Positions 1-10,679 of a stretch of DNA of 10,679 nt are shown in pieces (position 1 is the stretch's first letter; every line of letters begins with the position of its first letter). A program made the position numbers and the translations under genes. Source of the DNA: a virus (Duplodnaviria; Heunggongvirae; Uroviricota; Caudoviricetes); IMG/VR virus record IMGVR_UViG_2609459795_000010, positions 1-10,679 of that record. The stretch is one strand, 5' to 3'. Below the pieces are notes generated by a model that saw nothing but the letters and a program-made list of their open reading frames with translations, ran no database searches and was not told the DNA's origin.

Positions 1-276
1 TTACCGACTGCGGCCTGAGTTTTTTAAGTGACGTAAAATCGTGTTGAGGCCAACGCCCATAATGCGGGCGGTTGCCCGGCATCCAACGCCATTCATGGCC
101 ATATCAATGATTTTCTGGTGCGTACCGGGTTGAGAAGCGGTGTAAGTGAACTGCAGTTGCCATGTTTTACGGCAGTGAGAGCAGAGATAGCGCTGATGTC
201 CGGCGGTGCTTTTGCCGTTACGCACCACCCCGTCAGTAGCTGAACAGGAGGGACAGCTGATAGAAACAGAAGCCAC
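1..276 (-). CDS. insA: IS1 InsA transposition regulator, 91 aa, GTG start
   Basis: Translation [43 protein letters not shown]...LKNSGRSR is recognisable as canonical IS1 InsA (CxxC...CxxC zinc finger). Stop codon sits at 1-3. Confidence 0.92.
19..25 (-). promoter_or_regulatory. IS1 AAAAAAC programmed -1 frameshift motif (InsAB' fusion site)
   Basis: Minus strand reads AAAAAAC just before the insA stop. This is the established IS1 slippery site; insB lies outside the window. Confidence 0.6.
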
Positions 277-304
277 TGGAGCACCTCAAAAACACCATCA
301 TACA

Positions 305-751
305 CTAAATCAGTAAGTTGGCAGCATTACCCAAAGATATACCTATAACAAAATGAGCGATAATTAACTCATAGTCATCTATTCTATATTGTTTAAGCTT
401 CAACATGCAGGTATCAATCATACGACCTTCATCGTTGCCACACTGACGGCGTAATTTCTTACCATGAGGTACTACATCTTTATATTTATCAGCTACTTGC
501 TGCCAGTTGATAGAACTATTTCCAGCTGCAGCCCAAGCCCCCCAACTGTCCAAAATATCATATATATTAGCATTGCTATCCACCTTTTTTTTATATTCTT
601 TTTTGAGGCGACCAAGAAGCATCCTGGCCATCATCATTATTTCTATACTTTTAACTGATTCATAAGCATCAGGAGAAATAATTCTCCCATCACTTAATGC
701 CCTATCACTAAGATTTGCTATTTCCAATAATCGTTCTTTAGTTATTTCCAT
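305..751 (-). CDS. AT-rich hypothetical accessory protein, 3' end interrupted by IS1 (last 8 codons GNAANLLI and the stop are read from the IS1 inverted repeat)
   Basis: ATG at 751..749 preceded by GGAG (761..758) with 6-nt spacing. The open frame runs into the IS1 end at 331. Markedly AT-rich (by eye about 35% GC) compared with neighbours. No family recognised. Confidence 0.6.
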   Translation of the reverse strand: MEITKERLLEIANLSDRALSDGRIISPDAYESVKSIEIMMMARMLLGRLKKEYKKKVDSNANIYDILDSWGAWAAAGNSSINWQQVADKYKDVVPHGKKLRRQCGNDEGRMIDTCMLKLKQYRIDDYELIIAHFVIGISLGNAANLLI

Positions 752-909
752 TATTATCTCCACCGCCCTTTCGGGCGGCCTCCTGATGTTCTGAGGGTGC
801 GGAAATCCCTCCGGTTAAGGATTAAATTTTTAACAGTGCTGAATTTAATTATTCAGATTTGGATTATGCTTTCTCTTTCACTTCACCAAGTTCCGATTGT
901 TAATTTGGC

Positions 910-1326
910 TCACAACAGCACCTCCTGTAAGTTTCCCCGATAAAACGCCAGTACGCGCTGCATAACTTCGCTCTTCCGGCACTCGCTACAGATTATGTTC
1001 TGACGCCTGTCGTAGTGGCGTATCTCTCCATCTGGTAATGAATAAATCAGGCCAGGGTCGCTCTTCTTTTTCGCTGCACCTTTAGACATCTCTTTATGGG
1101 CTTTTATCCAATCTTTACGTACCTGCTCAGAAGGGAATATTCCATGCCCTGAACCATATACAACACCACTGTCTACCAGTTCTTTCGCCAGAACTTCAAT
1201 CAGATGTCTCGTCGCCCCTGTTTCATTTTCCAGTTGTTTACGCGTTTTCCTACCATATCTGCGTACCAGTTCCACAATACGCGCCTTTACTTCTTCCCGT
1301 TGTTCGGGAGTAAAAACTTTTACCAT
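910..1326 (-). CDS. Hypothetical phage protein downstream of the helicase loader (ren/YdaW position), 138 aa
   Basis: ATG at 1326..1324 with strong AGGAGG Shine-Dalgarno just upstream, 14 bp after the stop of the preceding gene. No family recognised. Confidence 0.75.
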   Translation of the reverse strand: MVKVFTPEQREEVKARIVELVRRYGRKTRKQLENETGATRHLIEVLAKELVDSGVVYGSGHGIFPSEQVRKDWIKAHKEMSKGAAKKKSDPGLIYSLPDGEIRHYDRRQNIICSECRKSEVMQRVLAFYRGNLQEVLL

Positions 1327-1340
1327 AAGTCCTCCTGAAA

Positions 1341-2087
1341 TTACTTCACAACCCTCAGGTGTCTGACATTCGAACGCCAGCTCTCCCAGTTAAAATTCAC
1401 CCAGCGACCACCGTTCATGACCATGCGATCCATCACACGCTCGCCAAGAAGCGTACTCATCGCTACGTGGTTCAGGTTCGTCAGCATTCCGACACTACGC
1501 ATCGAAGCCGTTCTGCGGTCGACTATCTGGTTCAGCGTGACCTGCTCGTTGCGCATATCCCGCTGCATTCCGATTTCATCCAGGACAAGCAGGTCAACAT
1601 CACACAACCCCTGTAAAAATTTTTCGCCTGAGTTTTTGTTGTCGTAGCTGTTGTGTAACGCCAGCATCACATCAGCCACCGTTATCACAATCACGCTGCG
1701 ACCTTTCGCCAGAAGATGATTGCCAATGGCGGCTGCAAGGTGGTTCTTTCCGGTACCCGGCTTACCGCTGAACACAAAATTCGTGCACCCTGTCATCAGT
1801 TCGTCAGCGATGGATTTTGCCTGGCTCAGCGCGTGTTTTTGCCCGTCGTTCTGCACCTGATAATTCGCAAACGAGCATTTGCTGTGCAGAGGCTGGATGC
1901 CCGAACGATTCAGGATTTTTTCCACCCGCAACTGGCGATTCTGGCGGTTGATCTCCTCGCTACGTTTTCGCCCTTCTGCCAGTTGCCACTCGCGCCACTC
2001 GTCCACTGTCCGGTACGGCGCGATTACATGCTGCGGAGTCAGCTTACGGATACGCTCAAGAACACCACCTGCCGCGATATTTTTCAT
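1341..2087 (-). CDS. ydaV: DnaC-like AAA+ replicative helicase loader, 248 aa (Rac YdaV-like, lambda P functional analogue)
   Basis: Walker A FSGKPGTGKNHLAAAIG and Walker B DLLVLDEIG seen in the translation. Length matches my recollection of K-12 YdaV (248 aa). Sits immediately downstream of the initiator gene. Confidence 0.88.
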   Translation of the reverse strand: MKNIAAGGVLERIRKLTPQHVIAPYRTVDEWREWQLAEGRKRSEEINRQNRQLRVEKILNRSGIQPLHSKCSFANYQVQNDGQKHALSQAKSIADELMTGCTNFVFSGKPGTGKNHLAAAIGNHLLAKGRSVIVITVADVMLALHNSYDNKNSGEKFLQGLCDVDLLVLDEIGMQRDMRNEQVTLNQIVDRRTASMRSVGMLTNLNHVAMSTLLGERVMDRMVMNGGRWVNFNWESWRSNVRHLRVVK

Positions 2088-2093
2088 GGCCCG

Positions 2094-3059
2094 TTACCCC
2101 CTGAACCCCGGCGGAATTTCGGTATCCGGCTCAGAAATATGATTCACACAACGCTGTACAGACGAACGCCCCAGGCGGATAACCAGTTCATCCCATTTTT
2201 CGCGAAGCTTTGACGGACTCATGATATTTTTTACCCAGAATGGATCCCGCTGCACCCGACCAAACATTTCACAAATTTGTCTGTGAGTTCTGCCATCCAG
2301 CATCCGCATTGTGCGCACGTCGTTGGCCCATGCGGTCCAGTTGGGTTCTTTCGGTCGCGAAATCTCGCCATCATCGCTGGCGGCCTGCTCGTAAAGACTC
2401 ACGATTCGCCCCCAGATCCACTGCGCACACGCCAAATCTTCCTGGTTGCCCCACTGGCGTTTTTTTGCACTGAACACAACCGCGTCAGGGTGTCGGGTTA
2501 AAAAATCCTGTTCAACCGTCTGCGGGTCCGGTTGCGAAGCTTCCGGACGAGAAGTGTTTTTATTCTCTGTAGTAATCTCTGTTGTATTCTCTGTAAGATC
2601 ATCAGGCCATTTTGACCCGATGACATTGAGTCGTTTTGAACCAATGGAACGTGCCATTTTGGCCTCTTCCATCGTGTCATTCTGATCTGATGGAGCAGCG
2701 CATTTTGACCTGATGGATTCGCTCACTTTGCCACCATCTAAAAGCTCGCTCTCGTAATTAATCGTGTAAAAATTAGTCATATCACGCTTTGATTTATTGA
2801 GCTTTTCGCAACGCAAAAGCCCCAGCGTTTTCAGACTTGCAAATGCGCGTTTTAACGTTGACTCTGACCAGAACGGGAACTGCTCCAGCCATTGTTCTGT
2901 TGTGTTATAAATCCAGCGAACACCATCACATTCCATGCCGGAACTGGTATCTCTCAACCAGTAATGCAACTGCTGCAACACGATGGCTTCGTTCAGACCA
3001 ATTTTCATCGCCAGCTGCGTGTTTATAACCAGCGGACGTTCAGCAAAAAGGAGCTTCAT
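2094..3059 (-). CDS. Phage replication initiator, O-like (YdaU-like), about 321 aa; ORF track extends to a TTG at 3083
   Basis: ATG at 3059..3057 lies 21 bp after the upstream stop and follows a G-rich SD. N-terminal winged-helix-like region, low-complexity linker (TENTTEITTENKNTS), conserved C-terminal region. Position between the regulator and the helicase loader. Confidence 0.8.
   Translation of the reverse strand: MKLLFAERPLVINTQLAMKIGLNEAIVLQQLHYWLRDTSSGMECDGVRWIYNTTEQWLEQFPFWSESTLKRAFASLKTLGLLRCEKLNKSKRDMTNFYTINYESELLDGGKVSESIRSKCAAPSDQNDTMEEAKMARSIGSKRLNVIGSKWPDDLTENTTEITTENKNTSRPEASQPDPQTVEQDFLTRHPDAVVFSAKKRQWGNQEDLACAQWIWGRIVSLYEQAASDDGEISRPKEPNWTAWANDVRTMRMLDGRTHRQICEMFGRVQRDPFWVKNIMSPSKLREKWDELVIRLGRSSVQRCVNHISEPDTEIPPGFRG
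2561..2716. repeat. Iteron-like direct repeats inside the initiator gene: three tandem 12-bp units (2561-2596) plus CATTTTGACCYGATGR copies at 2608-2623, 2678-2693 and 2701-2716, with a partial copy at 2655-2664; putative prophage ori
   Basis: Repeats read directly from the sequence. By analogy with lambda ori lying inside gene O in the inter-domain linker. Confidence 0.45.
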
Positions 3060-3079
3060 CCTCCCCCCAGAACACGTTA

Positions 3080-3505
3080 TCAATGCGCCACCACGGCATT
3101 TCCCGCCGGACCACCACGATTCATCTGATCGAACAACACGATCGCTGCCGCAACAAACTCATCGATATCTTTCACCAGGCGCTCCCGTCGCTCGACAAGC
3201 TCCCGGTGATATTCCGAACTGTGGCTGCGCATTCGGGCCACCAGCGGAGGCGGCATTGCTTTTTCGATCGCCGGTAACAACGCCTGAATTTTTTTAACCG
3301 CATCAGGGGTGTCTTTTTCTACCCAGCGGAAAATTTTCTGGGTATTACGAGACAGGGCTTCCGGATGGCTGTCGTCGTACAATTCAGGAAACGTCATACC
3401 CAACTCAAAATAAGACTGGGTTATTTCAGCTGCCGGAACTTTTTCACCGTCCGAATGAGCCCAGGCATTCATCGCCATGCGGATGTGTTCATGCTTGATT
3501 TTCAT
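3080..3505 (-). CDS. ydaT: YdaT-family regulator (CII functional analogue), 141 aa
   Basis: ATG at 3505..3503 overlaps the upstream stop as ATGA (translational coupling); GGAG lies 8 nt upstream. Size and position after the Cro-like gene match Rac YdaT as I recall it. Confidence 0.78.
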   Translation of the reverse strand: MKIKHEHIRMAMNAWAHSDGEKVPAAEITQSYFELGMTFPELYDDSHPEALSRNTQKIFRWVEKDTPDAVKKIQALLPAIEKAMPPPLVARMRSHSSEYHRELVERRERLVKDIDEFVAAAIVLFDQMNRGGPAGNAVVAH

Positions 3506-3804
3506 GAATCAACTCCATCAGATAAGCATGCACTACAATCACCTTCAGCATGAACAACATGTGTTTGCCCCAAACGAATGCCGCTCGCATACTCAGGCCA
3601 AATAAGCTCCCAATCATGGGGTCGTAGCTCCGCCCTACTTACTTGGCCTTCCGTCGCAGATTCGATCATAAGGGCGCGGGTTGGAGATATAGCTGTTCGT
3701 CCAGACGCCATTTGCGATAAGTAAGATGGCGATACACCAAGTCTGGCCGCGAATTTCTTAGCATCACCAACCCTTAATGATTTAATAAACTCTTTTAATG
3801 TCAT
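3502..3804 (-). CDS. ydaS: Cro-like HTH regulator, YdaS family, 100 aa
   Basis: HTH segment AARLGVSPSYLSQMASGRTAISPTRALMIE. AGGAAGG Shine-Dalgarno before ATG at 3804..3802. Divergent from the repressor gene. Confidence 0.82.
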   Translation of the reverse strand: MTLKEFIKSLRVGDAKKFAARLGVSPSYLSQMASGRTAISPTRALMIESATEGQVSRAELRPHDWELIWPEYASGIRLGQTHVVHAEGDCSACLSDGVDS

Positions 3805-4274
3805 ACCTTCCTCGGTTTAGTGTTTTTTTTGCGAGTTTAGTGTTTAATAAACCATTAAGTCAAGTATTTGCTTGTTTAGTGATTACTAAAGATAATTACC
3901 ACATGCAAAAAAAAGAAATTCGCCGTTTACGTCTCAAGGAGTGGTTTAAAGATAAAACTCTGCCACCCAAAGAGAAGAGCTACCTATCTCAATTAATGAG
4001 TGGGAGAGCCTCGTTTGGAGAAAAGGCTGCCAGAAGAATAGAGCAAACATACGGGATGCCGGAAGGGTATCTGGATGCGGAATACGCAGAACAACCGGGG
4101 GTTTCTCCACCACATACAGGGTTAACGTCTAATCAACTGGAATTATTGCAGATTTTTTCAGCCTTCCCTGAGGATGAGCAACGCCAGATAATCAGCGAGT
4201 TAAAGCAGAAAAAAGAATCAATGGAAGATCTCATAGCGAGATGGATTGCGGCGCAAAAATGCCGCCGCGCCTGA
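3798..4274 (+). CDS. racR: Prophage repressor, RacR-like HTH_XRE protein (158 aa from ATG 3798; ATG at 3903 giving 123 aa is the more plausible start)
   Basis: HTH motif SYLSQLMSGRASFGEKAARRIEQTYG. Divergent from the Cro-like gene across an operator-repeat region. The 158-aa length matches my recollection of K-12 RacR. The first 35 codons overlap the operator region and the ydaS start. Confidence 0.82.
   Translation: MSYLPRFSVFFASLVFNKPLSQVFACLVITKDNYHMQKKEIRRLRLKEWFKDKTLPPKEKSYLSQLMSGRASFGEKAARRIEQTYGMPEGYLDAEYAEQPGVSPPHTGLTSNQLELLQIFSAFPEDEQRQIISELKQKKESMEDLIARWIAAQKCRRA
3805..3902. promoter_or_regulatory. Divergent operator/promoter region (OR analogue): three GTTTAGTG repeats plus candidate divergent promoters
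   Basis: GTTTAGTG at 3815-3822, 3835-3842 and 3874-3881. Minus-strand TTGACT (3863..3858) with TAAACT (3839..3834) at 18-nt spacing, reading toward ydaS. Plus-strand GATAAT (3891-3896) 6 nt before the ATG at 3903, suggesting a leaderless repressor mRNA. Confidence 0.5.
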
Positions 4275-4294
4275 GTTATAAAACCGGAGGAAAC

Positions 4295-4486
4295 ATGAAT
4301 AGAGCCCTTTCACCAATGGTTTCTGAATTTGAAACCATTGAACAAGAAAACAGTTACAACGAATGGCTGCGTGCGAAAGTAGCAACGAGCCTTGCAGATC
4401 CGCGCCCAGCAATTCCCCATGACGAAGTTGAGCGCAGAATGGCAGAACGCTTTGCTAAGATGCGCAAGGAACGGAGCAAGCAGTAA
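4295..4486 (+). CDS. Putative type II antitoxin (ParD/RelB-like), 63 aa
   Basis: GGAGG Shine-Dalgarno 4 nt upstream of the ATG. Stop TAA is 1 nt before the ParE-like start. Small acidic protein with a basic C-terminus. Assignment rests mainly on its position upstream of the toxin. Confidence 0.6.
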   Translation: MNRALSPMVSEFETIEQENSYNEWLRAKVATSLADPRPAIPHDEVERRMAERFAKMRKERSKQ

Positions 4487-4487
4487 A

Positions 4488-4766
4488 ATGTTACCCGTGT
4501 TATGGCTTGAAAGCGCAGATACCGACCTAGATGATATAACTAGTTATATTGCTCGTTTCGACATAGATGCGGCTGAACGCTTATGGCAGCGATTAAGGGG
4601 TTGTGTGCTGCCGTTATCCGAACATCCGTATTTATACCCACCAAGCGACAGAGTACCTGGCTTGCGTGAGATTGTAGCCCACCCTAACTATATAATTCTA
4701 TACCGCGTAACAACATCAAGCGTTGAAGTAGTAAACGTGATCCACGCAAGACGCCAGTTTCCCTAA
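4488..4766 (+). CDS. ParE/RelE-superfamily toxin, 92 aa
   Basis: C-terminal signature PGLREIVAHPNYIILYRVTTSSVEVVNVIHARRQFP fits the ParE consensus (GLRE...Y.I.YRV....V.I.RV.H.R). Start is tightly coupled to the upstream small ORF. Confidence 0.78.
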   Translation: MLPVLWLESADTDLDDITSYIARFDIDAAERLWQRLRGCVLPLSEHPYLYPPSDRVPGLREIVAHPNYIILYRVTTSSVEVVNVIHARRQFP

Positions 4767-4789
4767 CTTTCACTACCAATAGAAACATA

Positions 4790-4826
4790 ACAACCGCAAC
4801 GACTTTATCAAAAGCGTTGTGTTTGT
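4790..4826 (+). terminator. Imperfect hairpin after the toxin gene; weak terminator candidate
   Basis: ACAACCGCAACG (4790-4801) pairs with CGTTGTGTTTGT (4815-4826) with one mismatch and one G-U. The T-rich tract downstream is not immediately adjacent. Confidence 0.25.
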
Positions 4827-4835
4827 TATGTTTCG

Positions 4836-4880
4836 CGGTTTAGTTTTTACTTGACTTAAGTTTAATGTTTATTAAACTAA
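4836..4880 (+). promoter_or_regulatory. OL/pL-like promoter-operator: TTGACT (4851-4856), 16-nt spacer, TAAACT (4873-4878), flanked by two degenerate GTTTAGTGTTT copies
   Basis: GTTTAGTtTTT at 4838-4848 and GTTTAaTGTTT at 4860-4870. The core TTGACTTAA...TTTATTAAAC is nearly identical to the minus-strand promoter core in the 3805-3902 region. Confidence 0.45.
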
Positions 4881-5063
4881 AATACCAACCCACCCCGCCC
4901 CACAGAACGCAGGGAAATACTTCGAGTTACCCGGCAGTGGTCAGGGGTTAAGTAGCCAGCCCGAGGCGTAAGAACATGACGGCAGGGTTCAACTTTAACT
5001 ATGCAGCAGGTTTTTGTTCCGCTACCCCGGCGTTAAGGGGAAACAGCACCGCGAGGAATCAGT

Positions 5064-5282
5064 ATGCAGAAACGAGAACCCGTCATCATCGCGCCAGACT
5101 ATACCGATGATGAACTTTATGAGTGGATGCGCCAGAAAATTAATGCAGCGCAGGATCTGAAATGGGCCAATGAAGCCAAGGCTAAGCAGGCTGAAAATCT
5201 GTCCGCTCTGGAGCAGGATATCACCAGGCTGGAAAAAGCAGCGGCATTAAGCATTGCCAGAATGATTACATGCCCGCGTTAA
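5064..5282 (+). CDS. Hypothetical small protein, 72 aa, predicted helical; first ORF after the OL-like promoter
   Basis: GAGGA Shine-Dalgarno 6 nt upstream of the ATG; double stop TAA TAG. No family recognised; not arginine-rich, so not N-like. Confidence 0.65.
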   Translation: MQKREPVIIAPDYTDDELYEWMRQKINAAQDLKWANEAKAKQAENLSALEQDITRLEKAAALSIARMITCPR

Positions 5283-5304
5283 TAGCTAACCAACGAGGCT
5301 AATA

Positions 5305-5634
5305 ATGGAATTTAAAGATTTACCAATGCAATTCCAGGAAATGGCAGCGAATATAGTTCGTTCCCAACTGGCGACTCTTGACCTGAGTACCGTAGAAAAA
5401 GAAACCATCGATACTATATCCGGTAACGTGCGTCGTGCCTTTATCGGTCTGTACGAAGAGAAGCAGCTCTCTGATAACCTGGATTTACATGAAAAATACT
5501 TCCTGGATCTAATGGACATCATTGATAAGGGGTTTGGCTTGTTAATGAAAAAGAAAGGGATTCGAATAGAACCCCTTGAAAATTACCTTGCAACAAAAAG
5601 CATTAATTCTTTTGATTCAAAACAAGAGAATTAA
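5305..5634 (+). CDS. Hypothetical protein, 109 aa
   Basis: GAGG Shine-Dalgarno 6 nt upstream of the ATG, 22 bp after the previous stop. AT-rich. No family recognised. Confidence 0.65.
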   Translation: MEFKDLPMQFQEMAANIVRSQLATLDLSTVEKETIDTISGNVRRAFIGLYEEKQLSDNLDLHEKYFLDLMDIIDKGFGLLMKKKGIRIEPLENYLATKSINSFDSKQEN

Positions 5635-5877
5635 TTACAGATTTAACATGCTCTTTCTCATGATTGAAGCTCTCATGATTGAAAGTGCCTGGTTGAAGCG
5701 AGTCGATATAATCAACAAGACTCTGTCGTACGACTTCATTTTTATCCATTACAGATGCAAGAAATGAAATTGCTAAAAGAGTTATATCACTACGCGCCGC
5801 AGCATGCTGCAATGCTTTATCAAAATTATTAATCTGGCGTATCAGGGAGTTAATGATTTCATCATTTTCAGTCGACA
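5603..5877 (-). CDS. Hypothetical protein, 91 aa, convergent with and overlapping the 3' end of the 109-aa ORF by 32 bp
   Basis: ATG at 5877..5875 with strong GGAGGG Shine-Dalgarno upstream on the minus strand. Very AT-rich. The ORF track extends it to 202 aa, but that N-terminal extension is GC-rich, Arg-rich and looks non-coding. Confidence 0.6.
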
Positions 5878-6432
5878 TTTCACCCTCCTGAGGGTTGGTG
5901 ATTAAGGAGTTCTCCACGGGTGAGGTGGAGTGCGTGCGCCGGACACGGGTGAGCATCCGGCACTGACAGTTTACTGAAAGGATATTTCCCTGAAAAGTCA
6001 GACCATAACGCGAAAGCGCACGGCGAGGTAGCTGGTTCATAGATAGCCTGTCGTTAAATTTTCGTCGACCGTGCGCTTCCGGTTGTGGCACTCCGCGAAA
6101 TGGCGCGGCGGTAAGTATGGCGGGGGTATTCCTTCCCCGTTGAGGACACCGGGTTGTCAGGTTGACCATACGCTTAAGTGACAACCCCGCTGCAACGCCC
6201 TCTGTTATCAATTTTCTGGTGACGTTTGGCGGTATCAGTTTTACTCCGTGACTGGTCTGCCGCCCTTTTTAAAGTGAGTTTTGTGATGCGGTGAATGCGG
6301 CTGAGCGCACGCGGAACAGTTAAAACCAAAAACAGTGTTATGGGTGGGTTCTCTGTATCCGGCGTTAATTGTTAACTGGTTAACGTCACCTGGAGGCACC
6401 AGGCACCGCATCAACAAAGTTCATTTGTAAAA
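5878..6432. other. 555-bp GC-rich, hairpin-dense non-coding tract between divergent genes; candidate structured RNA, long leader or gene remnant
   Basis: No convincing ORF on either strand. Hairpins read directly include GGTTGTCA...TGACAACC (8-bp stem), CCGCG-AAATGG-CGCGG and CCGGA...TCCGG. Composition contrasts with the AT-rich flanks. Confidence 0.3.
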
Positions 6433-6444
6433 ATGGAGATAATT

Positions 6445-6666
6445 ATGATTGCTCATCACTTCGGAACTGATGAGATTCCTCGTCAGTGCGTGACTCCCGG
6501 TGATTATGTTATTCATAAAGGAAGAACATATATTGCTTCGGTAAACAACATTAAAAAACAACGGCTCTATATTCGTGATTTTTCCACACAACACTGTATT
6601 AAGGAAACCATGATTAAAGTCTTCCTTGGTCGTGATGGTTTACCTGTAAAAGCAGAGTCATGGTGA
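6445..6666 (+). CDS. Small prophage protein, 73 aa (77 aa if started at ATG 6433); possibly YdaC-like, unverified
   Basis: GGAG Shine-Dalgarno 6 nt before the ATG at 6445. Location two genes upstream of xis/int resembles the Rac ydaC position. The family name is recollection only. Confidence 0.65.
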
Positions 6667-6789
6667 GCAGTAATAAAATAACTGCCACAATACGACATTC
6701 AGCTTAATGAATACATCAGATTTGATTCTTATATGCCAGCAATGGCAGGGATTTGTTCATCCTTAAATCTGTCATGAGGTTAAAACAAA

Positions 6790-7710
6790 ATGAGTAAAGT
6801 CTTTATTTGCGCCGCCATTCCGGACGAACAGGCAATAAAGGAAGAAGGTGCAGTTGCTGTAGCCACTGCCATTGAAGCCGGTGACGAACGCCGCGCCCGT
6901 GCCAAATTTACCTGGCAATTCCTGGAGCAATATCCGGCTGCTCAGGACTGCGCTTATAAATTTCTTGTCTGCGAGGATAAACCCGGTATACCCCGCCCTG
7001 CCCTCGATTCCTGGGATGCTGAATATATGCGGGAAAACCGCTGGGATGAGGAGTCAGCTTCCTTTGTCCCGGTTGAGACTGAATCAAATCCGATGAACGT
7101 CACTTTTGACAAGCTGGCCCCTGAAGTACAGAACGCTGTCATGGTTAAGTTCGACACATGTGAAAACATCACCGTTGATATGGTGATTAGTGCACAGGAA
7201 CTGTTGCAGGAAGACATGGCAACATTCGACGGACATATCGTTGAAGCGTTGATGAAAATGCCAGAAGTTAACGCCATGTATCCGGAACTTAAGTTGCATG
7301 CCATCGGGTGGGTTAAGCATAAATGTAAGCCTGGAGCTAAATGGCCCGAAATTCAGGCAGAGATGCGCATCTGGAAAAAACGTCGCGAAGGTGAACGCAA
7401 GGGAACCGGAAAATACACGTCTGTTGTTGATCTCGCCCGCGCCAGAGCCAATCAACAGAACACTGAAAGTTCAACAGGAAAAATCAGCCCGGTCATTGCT
7501 GCCACTCATCGCGAATACAAGCAGACATGGAAAACACTGGATGACGAACTGGCCTACGCTCTCTGGCCTGGTGATGTGGATGCCGGAAACATTGACGGCA
7601 GCATTCATCGCTGGGCAAAAAATGAAGTTATCGACAACGACCGCGAAGACTGGAAGCGTATCTCGGCATCAATGCGCAAACAGCCTGATGCCCTTCGCTA
7701 CGACCGCTAG
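6790..7710 (+). CDS. Hypothetical protein, 306 aa, acidic; ends at a TAG that is in frame with the next ORF
   Basis: ATG with GAGG about 10 nt upstream. Long open frame. No family recognised. Confidence 0.72.
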   Translation: MSKVFICAAIPDEQAIKEEGAVAVATAIEAGDERRARAKFTWQFLEQYPAAQDCAYKFLVCEDKPGIPRPALDSWDAEYMRENRWDEESASFVPVETESNPMNVTFDKLAPEVQNAVMVKFDTCENITVDMVISAQELLQEDMATFDGHIVEALMKMPEVNAMYPELKLHAIGWVKHKCKPGAKWPEIQAEMRIWKKRREGERKGTGKYTSVVDLARARANQQNTESSTGKISPVIAATHREYKQTWKTLDDELAYALWPGDVDAGNIDGSIHRWAKNEVIDNDREDWKRISASMRKQPDALRYDR

Positions 7711-7761
7711 ACTATTTTTGGCCTTGTCCGTGAACGTCCGATCGACATTCACAAAGACCCT

Positions 7762-9261
7762 GTGGCACTGAACAAATACATTACTGAATACCTGACTACA
7801 AAGGGCGTGTTTGAAGATGAAGGAACAAATCAGAGCGCAACTGATACTCTCTCGTCGCCAGTACCAGAAACTGATGCAGTGGAAACGGCAATTCCGGACA
7901 ACGAAAAAACCGAATGCAAAGTGGAAGTCGAACCATCTGTAGAGCGTGAGGGGCCGTTCTACTTCCTCTTCACCGACAAGGATGGCGAAAAATACGGTCG
8001 CGCAAACAAACTTTCTGGTCTGGATAAGGCGCTGGCTGCCGGGGCTACTGAAATCACGAAAGAAGAATATTTCGCCCGCAAAAACAGTACATACTCAGGT
8101 TCACAACAAAATACTGGTGCATCTGACACGACCGCACAGCCAGAACCGGTAAAAGTTACCGCTGACGAAGTAAACAAAATTATGCAGGCAGCCAATATCA
8201 GCCAGCCTGACGCCGATAAGTTGCTTGCTGCATCACGTGGTGAATTTATTGAAGGGATTAGCGACCCGAATGATCCGAAATGGGTTAAGGGGATCCAGAC
8301 CCGCGATACTGTGAACCAGAACCAGCAAGAAACGGAACAGAACGACCAGAAAGCGGAACAAAACAGCCCAAATACGCAACAAAACGAGCCAGAAACGAAA
8401 CAACCTGAACCAGTAGTGCAACAGGAACCGGAAAAAATCTGCACCGCCTGCGGTCAGAGCGGTGGTGGCAACTGCCCTGATTGTGGTGCGGTGATGGGCG
8501 ACGCAACATACCAGGAAACATTCGATGACAAGAACCAGGTTGAAGTTCAGGAAGACGATTCGGAGAAAATGGAAGGCGCTGAACACCCACACAAGGAGAA
8601 TGCTGGCAGCGCTCAGGATCACGCCAGCGATAGTGAAACTGGCGAGACGGCAGATCCCTTAATTACGGTGAACGGTCATCGCGTTATCACATCCACCAGC
8701 AGGACGTGTGACCATCTAATGATCGACCTTGAAACCATGGGAAAAAATCCTGATGCCCCGATTATCTCAATAGGTGCAATATTTTTCGATCCGCAAACCG
8801 GAGATATGGGACCGGAATTTAGTAAGACTATCGATCTGGAAACTGCTGGCGGAGTCATTGATCGTGACACCATTAAATGGTGGCTTAAGCAATCACGCGA
8901 GGCGCAATCTGCCATTATGACCGATGAAATCCCGTTAGATGATGCACTGTTACAATTGCGGGAATTTATCGACGAAAACTCCGGTGAATTTTTTGTTCAG
9001 GTCTGGGGAAATGGAGCCAACTTCGACAACACGATTTTGCGCCGTTCATACGAGCGGCAGGGGATCCCCTACCCGTGGCGTTACTACAACGATCGCGATG
9101 TACGCACAATCGTTGAGCTGGGGAAAGCCATAGACTTCGATGCCAGAACTGCTATCCCATTCGAAGGTGAGCGCCATAATGCACTTGATGACGCTCGTTA
9201 CCAGGCAAAATACGTTTCAGCTATCTGGCAAAAACTGATCCCGAGTCAGGCTGATTTTTAA
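7762..9261 (+). CDS. Multidomain protein, 499 aa: acidic low-complexity N-terminal region, CxxC-x8-CxxC zinc ribbon, C-terminal DEDDh 3'-5' exonuclease domain (Rv2179c/RNase T-like)
   Basis: Exo motifs seen in the translation: IDLETMG (Exo I), [12 protein letters not shown] (Exo II), [10 protein letters not shown] (Exo III). Zinc ribbon [16 protein letters not shown]. Start is GTG with no clear SD. An internal start at the ATG near 8719 would give a domain-only exonuclease. Confidence 0.75.
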
Positions 9262-9272
9262 TGTTCAACCGT

Positions 9273-9304
9273 CGCCAGTTGTCGTTGGTATTCTGCAACT
9301 GGCG
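9273..9304 (+). promoter_or_regulatory. Perfect 9-bp inverted repeat CGCCAGTTG / CAACTGGCG with a 14-nt loop, between the exonuclease gene and xis
   Basis: Read directly from the sequence. Followed by TGTT and then the xis SD (GGAG at 9311-9314). Could be a terminator, attenuator or processing site. Confidence 0.35.
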
Positions 9305-9322
9305 TGTTCCGGAGTGATAGCC

Positions 9323-9592
9323 ATGAGCGAACAGTACCTGATAACGCTTGACGAGTGGAAACCAAAACGGTTCAGTCTCCCAATAACAAACACTACCCTG
9401 GTGAAATACGGAAAACTAGGATACATCGTTCCAAGACCACAAAAAATTCGTGGGCGTTGGCTGATAGATCGCCGGGCAGTATTTGTTGGACCTGGTGAAA
9501 CGGGAATTGCGCCGGAAATTCATACTGGCGATGATGATGCACTGAAGGAGATTTTAACTCATGTCACCGAGGCCACGAAAAAACAGCACTGA
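9323..9592 (+). CDS. xis: Excisionase (lambda Xis-like), 89 aa
   Basis: N-terminus MSEQYLITLDEW resembles lambda Xis MYLTLQEW. GGAG Shine-Dalgarno 8 nt upstream. The 3' end overlaps the int start by 32 bp, as in lambda. Confidence 0.75.
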   Translation: MSEQYLITLDEWKPKRFSLPITNTTLVKYGKLGYIVPRPQKIRGRWLIDRRAVFVGPGETGIAPEIHTGDDDALKEILTHVTEATKKQH

Positions 9593-10679
9593 CGTAACCG
9601 GTCTTTACGAAAAGTTTGATCGCAGAACTGGCAGGGTTTACTACCAGTATAAAAACCCTGTGACTGGAAAATTTCACGGTCTCGGAACAGACAAAGGCAA
9701 AGCAGAAAAAATCGCTTCCACAGCCAATCAGCGAATAGCTGCAGCAGAAGCTGAATATTTCATGCGCAAAATTGATGAAAGTCCGTCAGCAACAAAACGT
9801 CGGGGCATCAGATTAAAGGCATGGGTTGATCGATATCTGAAAATACAGGACGCGCGACTGAAAAATGGAGATATTGCAGCTACAACTCACAAAGAAAAAA
9901 CTCGAATGGCTGCATACCTGGTTTCCCGTCTGGGAAACCACCCATTGAAAGAACTGGAAGTAAGAGACTTTGCATTAATACTGGATGAGTGGCTGGATAA
10001 AGACATGGTCAGCACAGCGAGAGTAAATCGTGGATTATGGGTTGATATTTATAAAGAAGCACAGCATGCAGGGGAAGTTCCTCCTGGATGGAATCCTCCG
10101 GAGGCTACCCGTAAACCGATCCCTAAAGTAACCAGAGCCAGGCTCACCATGGAAGACTGGCAAAAAATTTACAATGCAACGCCTGAAAAACACTTTATCC
10201 GTAACGCAATGCTTCTTGCGATTGTTACTGGTCAGCGCCGTGATGACATTTGCCACATGCGTTTTTCAGATGTGTGGAACGAACACTTGCATATCACCCA
10301 GGGAAAAACCGGAATGCGTCTGGCGTTACCGCTTACACTACGCTGTGATGCCATTGGGATAACGTTAAAAGAAGTTATTGATGGGTGCCGAGACAGAATA
10401 TTAAGTCCATATCTAATCCATAGTCGGCACCAGAAACAACCGAAGCCGATGAGTAAAGACAACCTGAGCGACTACTTTGCCAAAGCACGGGATCTGGCTG
10501 GGATAATTCCACCAGCAGGAAAAACTCCGCCAACATTTCATGAACAACGCTCTCTATCAGAACGGTTGTACCGTGCACAGGGTATCGATACAAAAACATT
10601 ACTAGGACATAAAGTCCAGGCAACCACCGATCGCTATAACGATACTCGAGGTCAGGAATGGGTTAAGTTGGTTATTTGA
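9561..10679 (+). CDS. int: Lambda-family tyrosine integrase, 372 aa, complete (TGA at window end)
   Basis: AAGGAG Shine-Dalgarno. Catalytic signatures TGQRRDDI (Arg), HEQRSLSERL (His-x-x-Arg), LLGHK and TDRYND (Tyr). C-terminus GQEWVKLVI parallels lambda Int GREWDKIEIK. Confidence 0.92.
   Translation: MSPRPRKNSTDVTGLYEKFDRRTGRVYYQYKNPVTGKFHGLGTDKGKAEKIASTANQRIAAAEAEYFMRKIDESPSATKRRGIRLKAWVDRYLKIQDARLKNGDIAATTHKEKTRMAAYLVSRLGNHPLKELEVRDFALILDEWLDKDMVSTARVNRGLWVDIYKEAQHAGEVPPGWNPPEATRKPIPKVTRARLTMEDWQKIYNATPEKHFIRNAMLLAIVTGQRRDDICHMRFSDVWNEHLHITQGKTGMRLALPLTLRCDAIGITLKEVIDGCRDRILSPYLIHSRHQKQPKPMSKDNLSDYFAKARDLAGIIPPAGKTPPTFHEQRSLSERLYRAQGIDTKTLLGHKVQATTDRYNDTRGQEWVKLVI

Follow-up and report, generated by a model that had tools for sequence, protein, structure and literature searches.

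The DNA considered here is a window of 10,679 nucleotides, which comprises positions 1 to 10,679 of the IMG/VR virus record IMGVR_UViG_2609459795_000010 (Caudoviricetes), and the element in question is a GC-rich, hairpin-dense tract at 5878-6432 located between AT-rich genes. This tract is an already known element, the dicF locus, and it is understood, at a probability of about 0.93, as the long, structured spacer that remains untranslated within an early-left operon of the dicBF type, the operon being that of a Qin/Rac-like lambdoid prophage. What looked like a striking "non-coding" tract of 555 bp is thus a textbook DicF locus, the hairpins of which can be assigned to published processing steps. 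The spacer and the gene that follows it are constructed from the following components.

5891-6002, plus strand: 5' part of the conserved spacer, with three hairpins at 5912-5930, 5939-5960 and 5963-6001
6003-6023/6069-6088, plus strand: long imperfect stem seen in minimum-free-energy (MFE) folds, including the inverted repeat 6011-6023/6069-6081, which is 92% complementary
6082-6196, plus strand: four-way-junction domain of 115 nt, which is conserved and makes up the 5' portion of the 190-nt DicF species
6082-6089/6189-6196, plus strand: domain helix P1
6093-6097/6104-6108, plus strand: domain helix H1
6109-6112/6148-6151, plus strand: domain helix P2
6121-6125/6135-6139, plus strand: domain helix H2
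6152-6159/6179-6186, plus strand: domain helix H3
6213-6265 (6213-6270 with the terminator), plus strand: DicF small RNA (sRNA) of 53 nt, located by Rfam, by mapping of K-12 b1574 and by its fold
6272-6425, plus strand: STnc100-like structured module, the 5' leader of kil, delineated by RF02076 and RNAalifold
6435-6666, plus strand: Shine-Dalgarno (SD) sequence GGAG (6435-6438) and kil (ATG at 6445, 73 aa), a Rac-type FtsZ inhibitor

The identification of DicF is carried by a covariance model (CM) match to the Rfam family RF00039 at 6214-6265 on the plus strand, which reached 74.2 bits against a gathering score of 48 (E-value 2.8e-15) and covered model positions 1-52 of 52. DicF is the only Rfam family that attained its gathering score across the entire window. 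The RNA displays the seed, the Rho-independent terminator and the U-run by which DicF is recognized, since the 5' seed UUUCUGGUGACGUUU is single-stranded in the predicted fold and the terminator hairpin (6228-6239/6251-6264) is followed by a U5 run at 6266-6270. The position in the operon is likewise that of DicF, with ydfC upstream and the cell-division inhibitor kil downstream, dicB itself being replaced. DicF of the window differs from that of K-12 at a single base, C43G, which corresponds to window position 6255 in the 3' arm of the hairpin, and this allele is unique among the 81 DicF-bearing loci compared. The exchange strengthens the stem of the DicF hairpin.

In a four-way alignment, window positions 5891 to ~6425 proved to be ~97% identical both to the ydfC-dicF-dicB spacer of the Qin prophage of K-12 MG1655 and to the spacer of phage Tritos, the record of which annotates a DicF RNA at the homologous position. 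The Qin locus shares with the window the order of leader hairpins, RNase III stem, 5' domain, DicF with its terminator and structured leader, as well as the operon context of repressor, ydf genes, cell-division inhibitor, recE and int. It differs from the window in three respects: the window carries a 590-bp insertion with two open reading frames (ORFs) between ydfC and the spacer, it contains a Rac-type kil in place of dicB-ydfD, and its DicF bears C43G. Matches to the tract were found in 4730 of the 5426 complete E. coli genomes, with a median of two and a maximum of ten places per genome, and also in 77 phage records, so that the long spacer is a standard feature of such prophages. The initial annotation had regarded the length of the tract as unusual for a compact phage early region, which these counts contradict; the observation was real but ordinary.

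Other statements of the initial annotation on the tract were sustained to a large extent. The contrast in base composition was borne out, the GC content being 0.521 in 5878-6432 against 0.374 in 5301-5877 and 0.366 in 6433-6790 (52% against 37% on both flanks), and the non-coding stretch actually extends to 6444, since kil starts with the ATG at 6445. On the plus strand the tract folds with an MFE of -219.4 kcal/mol (z -4.69), a stability reached by 0 of 100 dinucleotide shuffles, and the minus strand gave a comparable result (z -4.53; 0 of 100 dinucleotide shuffles equally stable). All four of the inverted repeats that had been named are present, with coordinates that needed slight correction. 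The 8-bp stem GGTTGTCA/TGACAACC at 6152-6159/6179-6186 extends to a 9-bp arm GGGTTGTCA (6151-6159/6179-6187) and constitutes H3 of the four-way-junction domain, while CCGCG-AAATGG-CGCGG is located at 6093-6108 and constitutes H1. The CCGGA/TCCGG repeat occupies 5939-5960 with a spacer of 12 nt, not 11, and together with the CACC...GGTG hairpin at 5881-5900 it was assigned to the 5' leader of the spacer. A structured noncoding RNA, which had been offered as one of three explanations, turned out to be right, in that DicF (RF00039, 74.2 bits) resides within a processed, highly structured untranslated spacer. Among the checks that had been named at the same time, the covariance-model scan returned DicF above the gathering score at 6214-6265, compensatory base changes were recovered from comparative alignments of both the domain and the STnc100-like module, and protein-family scans of the minus-strand ORFs (Pfam, PHROG and NCBIfam) disclosed no decayed homologue. 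The ORFs inside the tract are short or devoid of family support in scans against the same three collections, and no tRNA- or tmRNA-like element was found in the tract by ARAGORN.

The 5' leader at 5891-6002 shares the ~97% identity to K-12 and Tritos and is less conserved in more distant phages. A 10-mer, CACGGGTGAG, occurs twice within it, at 5915-5924 and 5944-5953, in or at the loops of the first two leader hairpins, and this repeat could represent a recognition motif for a protein or an RNA. At the other end of the leader region, the 3' arm of the long imperfect stem shares bases with the 5' strand of the helix that closes the four-way-junction domain. Immediately upstream of the domain (A4 columns 1-12, window 6071-6081), non-Qin variants contain a boxA-like sequence, namely GUGCUCUUUC, GUGCUCUCUU or GUGCUCUCAG, which loosely resembles UGCUCUUUA; the same site reads GUGCGCUUCC in the Qin type, a degenerate version, and phage P1 carries nothing similar. 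The motif may be taken as a weak lead, drawn from sequence resemblance, toward an involvement of Nus factors.

In K-12, the 5' end of DicF is produced by RNase E, and its 3' end is set either by the intrinsic terminator (53 nt) or by RNase III cleavage of read-through RNA (72 nt) (PMC5069750, PMC9438474). Ragunathan et al. in 2023 additionally described a 190-nt species with an RNase III-dependent 5' end, along with the RNase E-dependent 53-nt species, and their primer extension in K-12 revealed no internal promoter (PMC10448788). These ends were transferred to the window by means of the K-12 dicF annotation at 1649382-1649434 and the register of the covariance model (L003 3241 corresponding to window 6071), which places the inferred start of the 190-nt species near 6076 and the end of the 72-nt species near 6284. 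The former falls in the 3' arm of the stem 6003-6023/6069-6088 and the latter in the 5' arm of the ~20-bp helix 6272-6293/6404-6425, meaning that the stems needed for the published cleavages are present at the mapped positions. By analogy with K-12, the stem 6003-6088 is probably the RNase III substrate that gives the 5' end of the 190-nt species, and the helix 6272-6293/6404-6425 probably the RNase III site that gives the 72-nt 3' end.

The sequence of events at the locus would accordingly follow that of K-12. A plus-strand polycistronic RNA would be initiated at an upstream repressor-controlled promoter and run through ydfC and the inserted two-gene cassette. RNase III would cut the stem 6003-6088 near 6076 to release an RNA of ~190 nt that comprises the four-way-junction domain and DicF, from which RNase E, cutting at ~6212/6213, would liberate the 53-nt DicF (6213-6265) that ends at its own intrinsic terminator. 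RNA reading through this terminator would be cut by RNase III within 6272-6293/6404-6425, giving the 72-nt DicF and separating it from the kil message. DicF, which inhibits cell division, would then, together with Hfq, repress ftsZ and other mRNAs in trans. Whereas the identity of DicF, the anatomy of the spacer and the conservation of its RNA structure are observed in the window and its relatives, these processing steps and the function of DicF are carried over from the 97%-identical K-12 locus.

Several points weigh against this picture. The terminator scan missed the DicF terminator, the loop and bulge of which lie outside the rules of the scan. The 3' region of K-12 DicF pairs with ftsZ and pykA, and C43G falls in precisely this region. 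The convergent gene of the insertion and a minus-strand terminator-like hairpin at 5577-5555 could reduce read-through from the upstream promoter, and the split recE of the window indicates that the prophage may be defective.

The less-explored part of the locus is the conserved folded domain just upstream of DicF. The single-sequence MFE structure of the 190-nt RNA gives the same four-way junction, and in a CM-fitted alignment of 46 distinct sequences 95.0% of the cells in the domain are paired. Two-sided changes were observed in 14 of the 36 domain pairs, in comparison with 5.4±1.6 in shuffles (0 of 500) and 1-5 with slid partners, and the covariation score was 0.154 against 0.094; these values derive from a model-fitted alignment, the copies in which were collected through one invariant loop motif that hides variation in that loop. 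G-U pairs are frequent in the domain, which indicates that selection acts on the plus-strand RNA. Matches of the domain model (CM R1) attained 93-167 bits in 53 copies. The H2 loop, like the centre of the STnc100-like module, varies among homologues by indels of non-triplet length. A pseudoknot that joins 6115-6120 to the H3 loop (6166-6171) is tentatively proposed on the basis of one compensatory lineage (GCAUGG/CCAUGC in phage P1) and one wobble. Of 5426 E. coli genomes, 4417 contain the domain, and none of the matches listed coincides with an annotated feature. The domain is annotated in none of the records examined and is not in Rfam 15, where the only hint was mascRNA at an E-value of 5.2, taken as noise, and a literature search found no paper that describes the 5' domain, although such a search cannot prove that none exists. 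A resemblance of the H3 loop to loop C of 5S rRNA was noticed by eye and dropped, being without Rfam support.

Downstream of DicF, the STnc100-like module is closed by the ~20-bp helix 6272-6293/6404-6425 and contains inner hairpins at 6296-6309, 6364-6384 and 6389-6403 (CCUGG-AGGCA-CCAGG) around a hypervariable centre. RNAalifold on 21 variants of the module yielded 42 pairs, nine of which show compensatory changes. STnc100 is a prophage sRNA family related to PasD (Zhu, Shabalina & Storz 2026 preprint), and its architecture, a long-range closing helix with several hairpins including CCNGG-AGGCA-CCNGG, is found in the module, which possesses the closing helix GUGAUGCGGUG/CACCGCAUCA, a GUUAA/UUAAC hairpin and the CCNGG-AGGCA-CCNGG hairpin. 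The match to RF02076 at 6281-6418 scored 37.7 bits (E-value 4.4e-7, model positions 26-154) and remained below the gathering score of 47, as did the copies in phages P7 and P1 (43.0 and 33.4 bits), for which reason the module is treated as a relative of STnc100 that would act as a structured 5' leader rather than as a member of the family. Further differences are that the match covers only the core of the 206-nt model, and that STnc100 is a stand-alone sRNA gene, whereas the module forms a 5' leader, in front of kil in the window, of dicB in K-12 and of terB/tciA in P7 and P1.

The kil gene itself was assigned by NCBIfam NF008465 (140 bits with a cut-off of 92, aligned over 1-73 of 73), by phrog_294 (Kil) and by the name "kil" given by the Prokaryotic Genome Annotation Pipeline (PGAP) to the counterpart in the related genome L001 (NZ_AP017610). 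It replaces dicB-ydfD of K-12 with a breakpoint at ~6415-6432; because this exchange point lies just upstream of the SD sequence, two different cell-division inhibitors use one STnc100-like leader. The proposal of the initial annotation that the tract might be a long regulatory leader of the two flanking genes is consequently retained for the 3' third (6272-6425), as the leader of kil, and abandoned for a control region shared by divergent genes.

The left border of the tract is formed by an insertion, the components of which are listed below.

5301-5890: 590-bp insertion separating ydfC from the spacer; the aligned sequences of K-12 Qin and phage Tritos lack it
5305-5634, plus strand: 109-aa ORF, phrog_6937, function unknown
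5603-5878, minus strand: 91-aa ORF with the SD sequence AGGAGG, no family

The two ORFs are convergent and overlapping. The 91-aa ORF is probably a real gene that belongs to the insertion rather than to the spacer, because it has a strong SD sequence and its frame remains open across ~15% nucleotide divergence from the homologue in L001. It follows from the insertion, which brings in this minus-strand gene, that the tract only appears to be a divergent intergenic region. One might nevertheless read the tract as the divergent promoter/operator region of the 91-aa gene and kil, given that the two nearest ORFs point away from it and that a 91-aa gene with such an SD sequence and an open frame in a diverged homologue therefore needs a promoter to its right. 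A sigma-70-like consensus scan predicted none there, nor on either strand of 5878-6444, the three sites found in 5200-6800 (3.2 expected by chance) all being outside the tract. Moreover, K-12 and Tritos possess this spacer but lack the minus-strand gene, the primer extension in K-12 cited above (PMC10448788) located no internal promoter, and conservation tracks the pairing of the plus-strand RNA, all of which renders this reading very unlikely. The idea that the tract is a decayed or unrecognised gene (a 202-aa, 145-aa or 111-codon minus frame, or a dicB remnant) is scarcely tenable, even though the minus frame 5879-6211 is open and PGAP annotates a 145-aa protein and a partial "DicB" pseudogene in a related genome. 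The 111-codon frame is an in-frame upstream extension of the 91-aa ORF, and the resulting 202-aa ORF has no Pfam family; the frame is open to the same extent in K-12 and Tritos, in which it leads into no gene and none is annotated, which supports the remark of the initial annotation that it may be open by chance. Its translation is rich in Arg and Pro and of low plausibility. The suggestion of a remnant of a deleted gene block is not supported either, in view of the absence of family matches and of homologues that keep the RNA structure, with substitutions that compensate in RNA stems and non-triplet indels in the H2 loop and the central STnc100-like module. The two PGAP features, a 145-aa hypothetical protein at 5726-6163 of L001, which extends beyond the inserted gene into the conserved spacer RNA, and the partial "DicB" pseudogene at 6458-6541 of L001, which lies within the STnc100-like leader and equals window 6335-6418, are probably annotation artefacts over RNA structure, and both can thus be corrected in related genomes.

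With the tract assigned to the dicF locus, the role of the four-way-junction domain has to be considered in the light of its spread. The tract proved to be modular: phages cdtI, Ayreon and 2H10, Stx2c phages and Salmonella phage F1055 all possess the 120 nt just upstream of DicF without DicF itself, and the region is 77% identical in the P1 family, where the GenBank record of P1 marks a "dicF-like region" in the leader of the ban operon. A scan with the H3 loop motif retrieved 102 copies with 76 unique sequences in 34 clusters, after ~20 chance matches in unrelated phyla had been filtered from the genome scan; these copies originate from E. coli, E. albertii, E. ruysiae, Shigella, Citrobacter, Trabulsiella, Erwinia tracheiphila, Izhakiella and IMG/VR contigs. 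A metagenome scan with a degenerate anchor furnished 120 loci, three of which were true copies and belonged to common types. Behind the domain, the seed/terminator cassette exists in at least 12 unrelated forms, every version ending in a hairpin and U-run, which was found within ~10-60 nt of the domain in all 12 variant classes. The domain would appear to head repressor-controlled early operons in lambdoid prophages, P1-family phage-plasmids and prophages of Citrobacter, Trabulsiella, Erwinia and Izhakiella.

The P1 "dicF-like region" (AF234172, feature 68791-68892) shares with the window the four-way-junction domain (CM score 92.7 bits) followed by an intrinsic terminator, and its helices H2, H3 and P2 as well as the putative pseudoknot contain compensatory changes. 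It differs in that the P1 domain is located at the 5' end of a primary transcript, beginning ~20-25 nt after the C1-controlled promoter Pban, and in that its cassette (GCCCAUCUUCGGGUGGGC-U6) is unrelated to the DicF seed and is followed, after the terminator, by three tRNA genes, tciABC and ban. In phage cdtI, a strong PL-like promoter is followed at a distance of 285 nt by the domain, which sits in a leader devoid of ORFs, ahead of a terminator and the whole set of early-left genes; no other promoter was predicted in this leader, and no N-like ORF was found between the PL-like promoter and the early-left genes.

The most economical inference is that the domain would serve as a precursor scaffold that sets the processing and stability of the following sRNA cassette, and it could even act as a general "launch pad" controlling the maturation or stability of phage sRNAs. 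It is possible, albeit doubtful, that the domain constitutes a separate structured RNA module, mobile and with its own function, and that DicF is only one of at least 12 swapped cassettes. If true, DicF would belong to a broader system of phage sRNAs that have a folded 5' domain in common and carry exchangeable seeds, which would bear on how phages evolve new regulators of host genes. The constant placement of the domain ahead of a terminator at the start of early operons would in that case also render an RNA-based control of early phage transcription without N protein directly testable in P1 and cdtI-like phages. A rather improbable alternative, compatible with the tract being the dicF locus, is that the domain is a cis-acting transcription element, put-like or riboswitch-like, which controls read-through of the following terminator and would gate kil/dicB, the recombination genes, int or the P1 ban operon. 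Its fold is complex and shows covariation, its loops and junctions are highly conserved, and it always stands before a hairpin and U-run while the seed/terminator cassette is exchanged across the 12 variant classes, a conserved-aptamer/variable-platform layout typical of transcriptional riboswitches and HK022 put (PMC9378689). A complex conserved fold directly upstream of an intrinsic terminator, as expected of a riboswitch, is indeed what is found, and the positions in cdtI and P1, after the early promoter and before the terminator and the operon genes, agree with such a role. The put RNAs of HK022 share the position seen in some phages, after a repressor-controlled early promoter and before terminators without an N-like gene. 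They measure ~70 nt with two stems, however, in contrast to ~115 nt with four helices in the domain, and CM R1 gave no match at E≤1 in the HK022 PL-putL-nun region (L167), the 9-mer GCGCGGCGG alone being in common; a kinship with put was hence rejected. Inspection of the variants by eye detected no conserved antiterminator pairing between the domain and the terminator arms. There is one domain copy per phage and none was seen in the rightward operon, the Qin-type domain is far from its promoter behind three genes, truncated domains coexist with intact sRNA cassettes (L009, L029, L054, L099), and the K-12 data are explained without a cis-element function.

Some further observations were made on the relatives of the domain. 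Among the truncated copies that carry an intact sRNA-like cassette, a single copy is interrupted within the H3 loop by a recombination breakpoint, and the 5' strand of helix P1 is missing from the others. Shigella phage 75/02 Stx (L009, ~2500-2600) contains a DicF-like RNA with a different seed, undetected by the Rfam DicF model. In F1055 (L008) and in copies from Trabulsiella (L023/L039), Erwinia tracheiphila (L043) and Izhakiella (L046), the loop of the post-domain terminator, within the 60-110 nt that follow the domain, contains an SD sequence and a start codon, e.g., GGAGGAGAAGAUAAUG; a small ORF starting from such a loop would cross the 3' arm and the U-run, which hints at a translation-coupled control of that terminator. 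Near the rightward-operon side of cdtI and an Stx2c phage, C4 antisense RNA (RF01695) and isrK (RF01394) are adjacent to each other (L006 and L007, positions 39-228, minus strand).

According to protein-family scans and the annotation of related genomes, the surroundings of the tract constitute a lambdoid immunity/early-left region, which includes the following genes.

Minus strand: O-like replication gene, CII-like gene and Cro-like gene
Immunity region: DicA/CI-like repressor
5064-5282: ydfC (phrog_1744; PGAP "YdfC" in L001)
Downstream of the tract: kil, recE-like exonuclease and integrase

The recE-like exonuclease is split into ORFs at 6790-7710 (306 aa) and 7762-9261 (499 aa), while a related genome has one gene of 2472 nt, which suggests a frameshift or nonsense mutation in a defective prophage. 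Between the repressor and the ydf genes, at 4241-4766, an ORF of the ParE toxin family (Pfam PF05016, E-value 4.8e-16) is accompanied by a small upstream ORF, and the two may form a toxin-antitoxin pair acquired as a moron.

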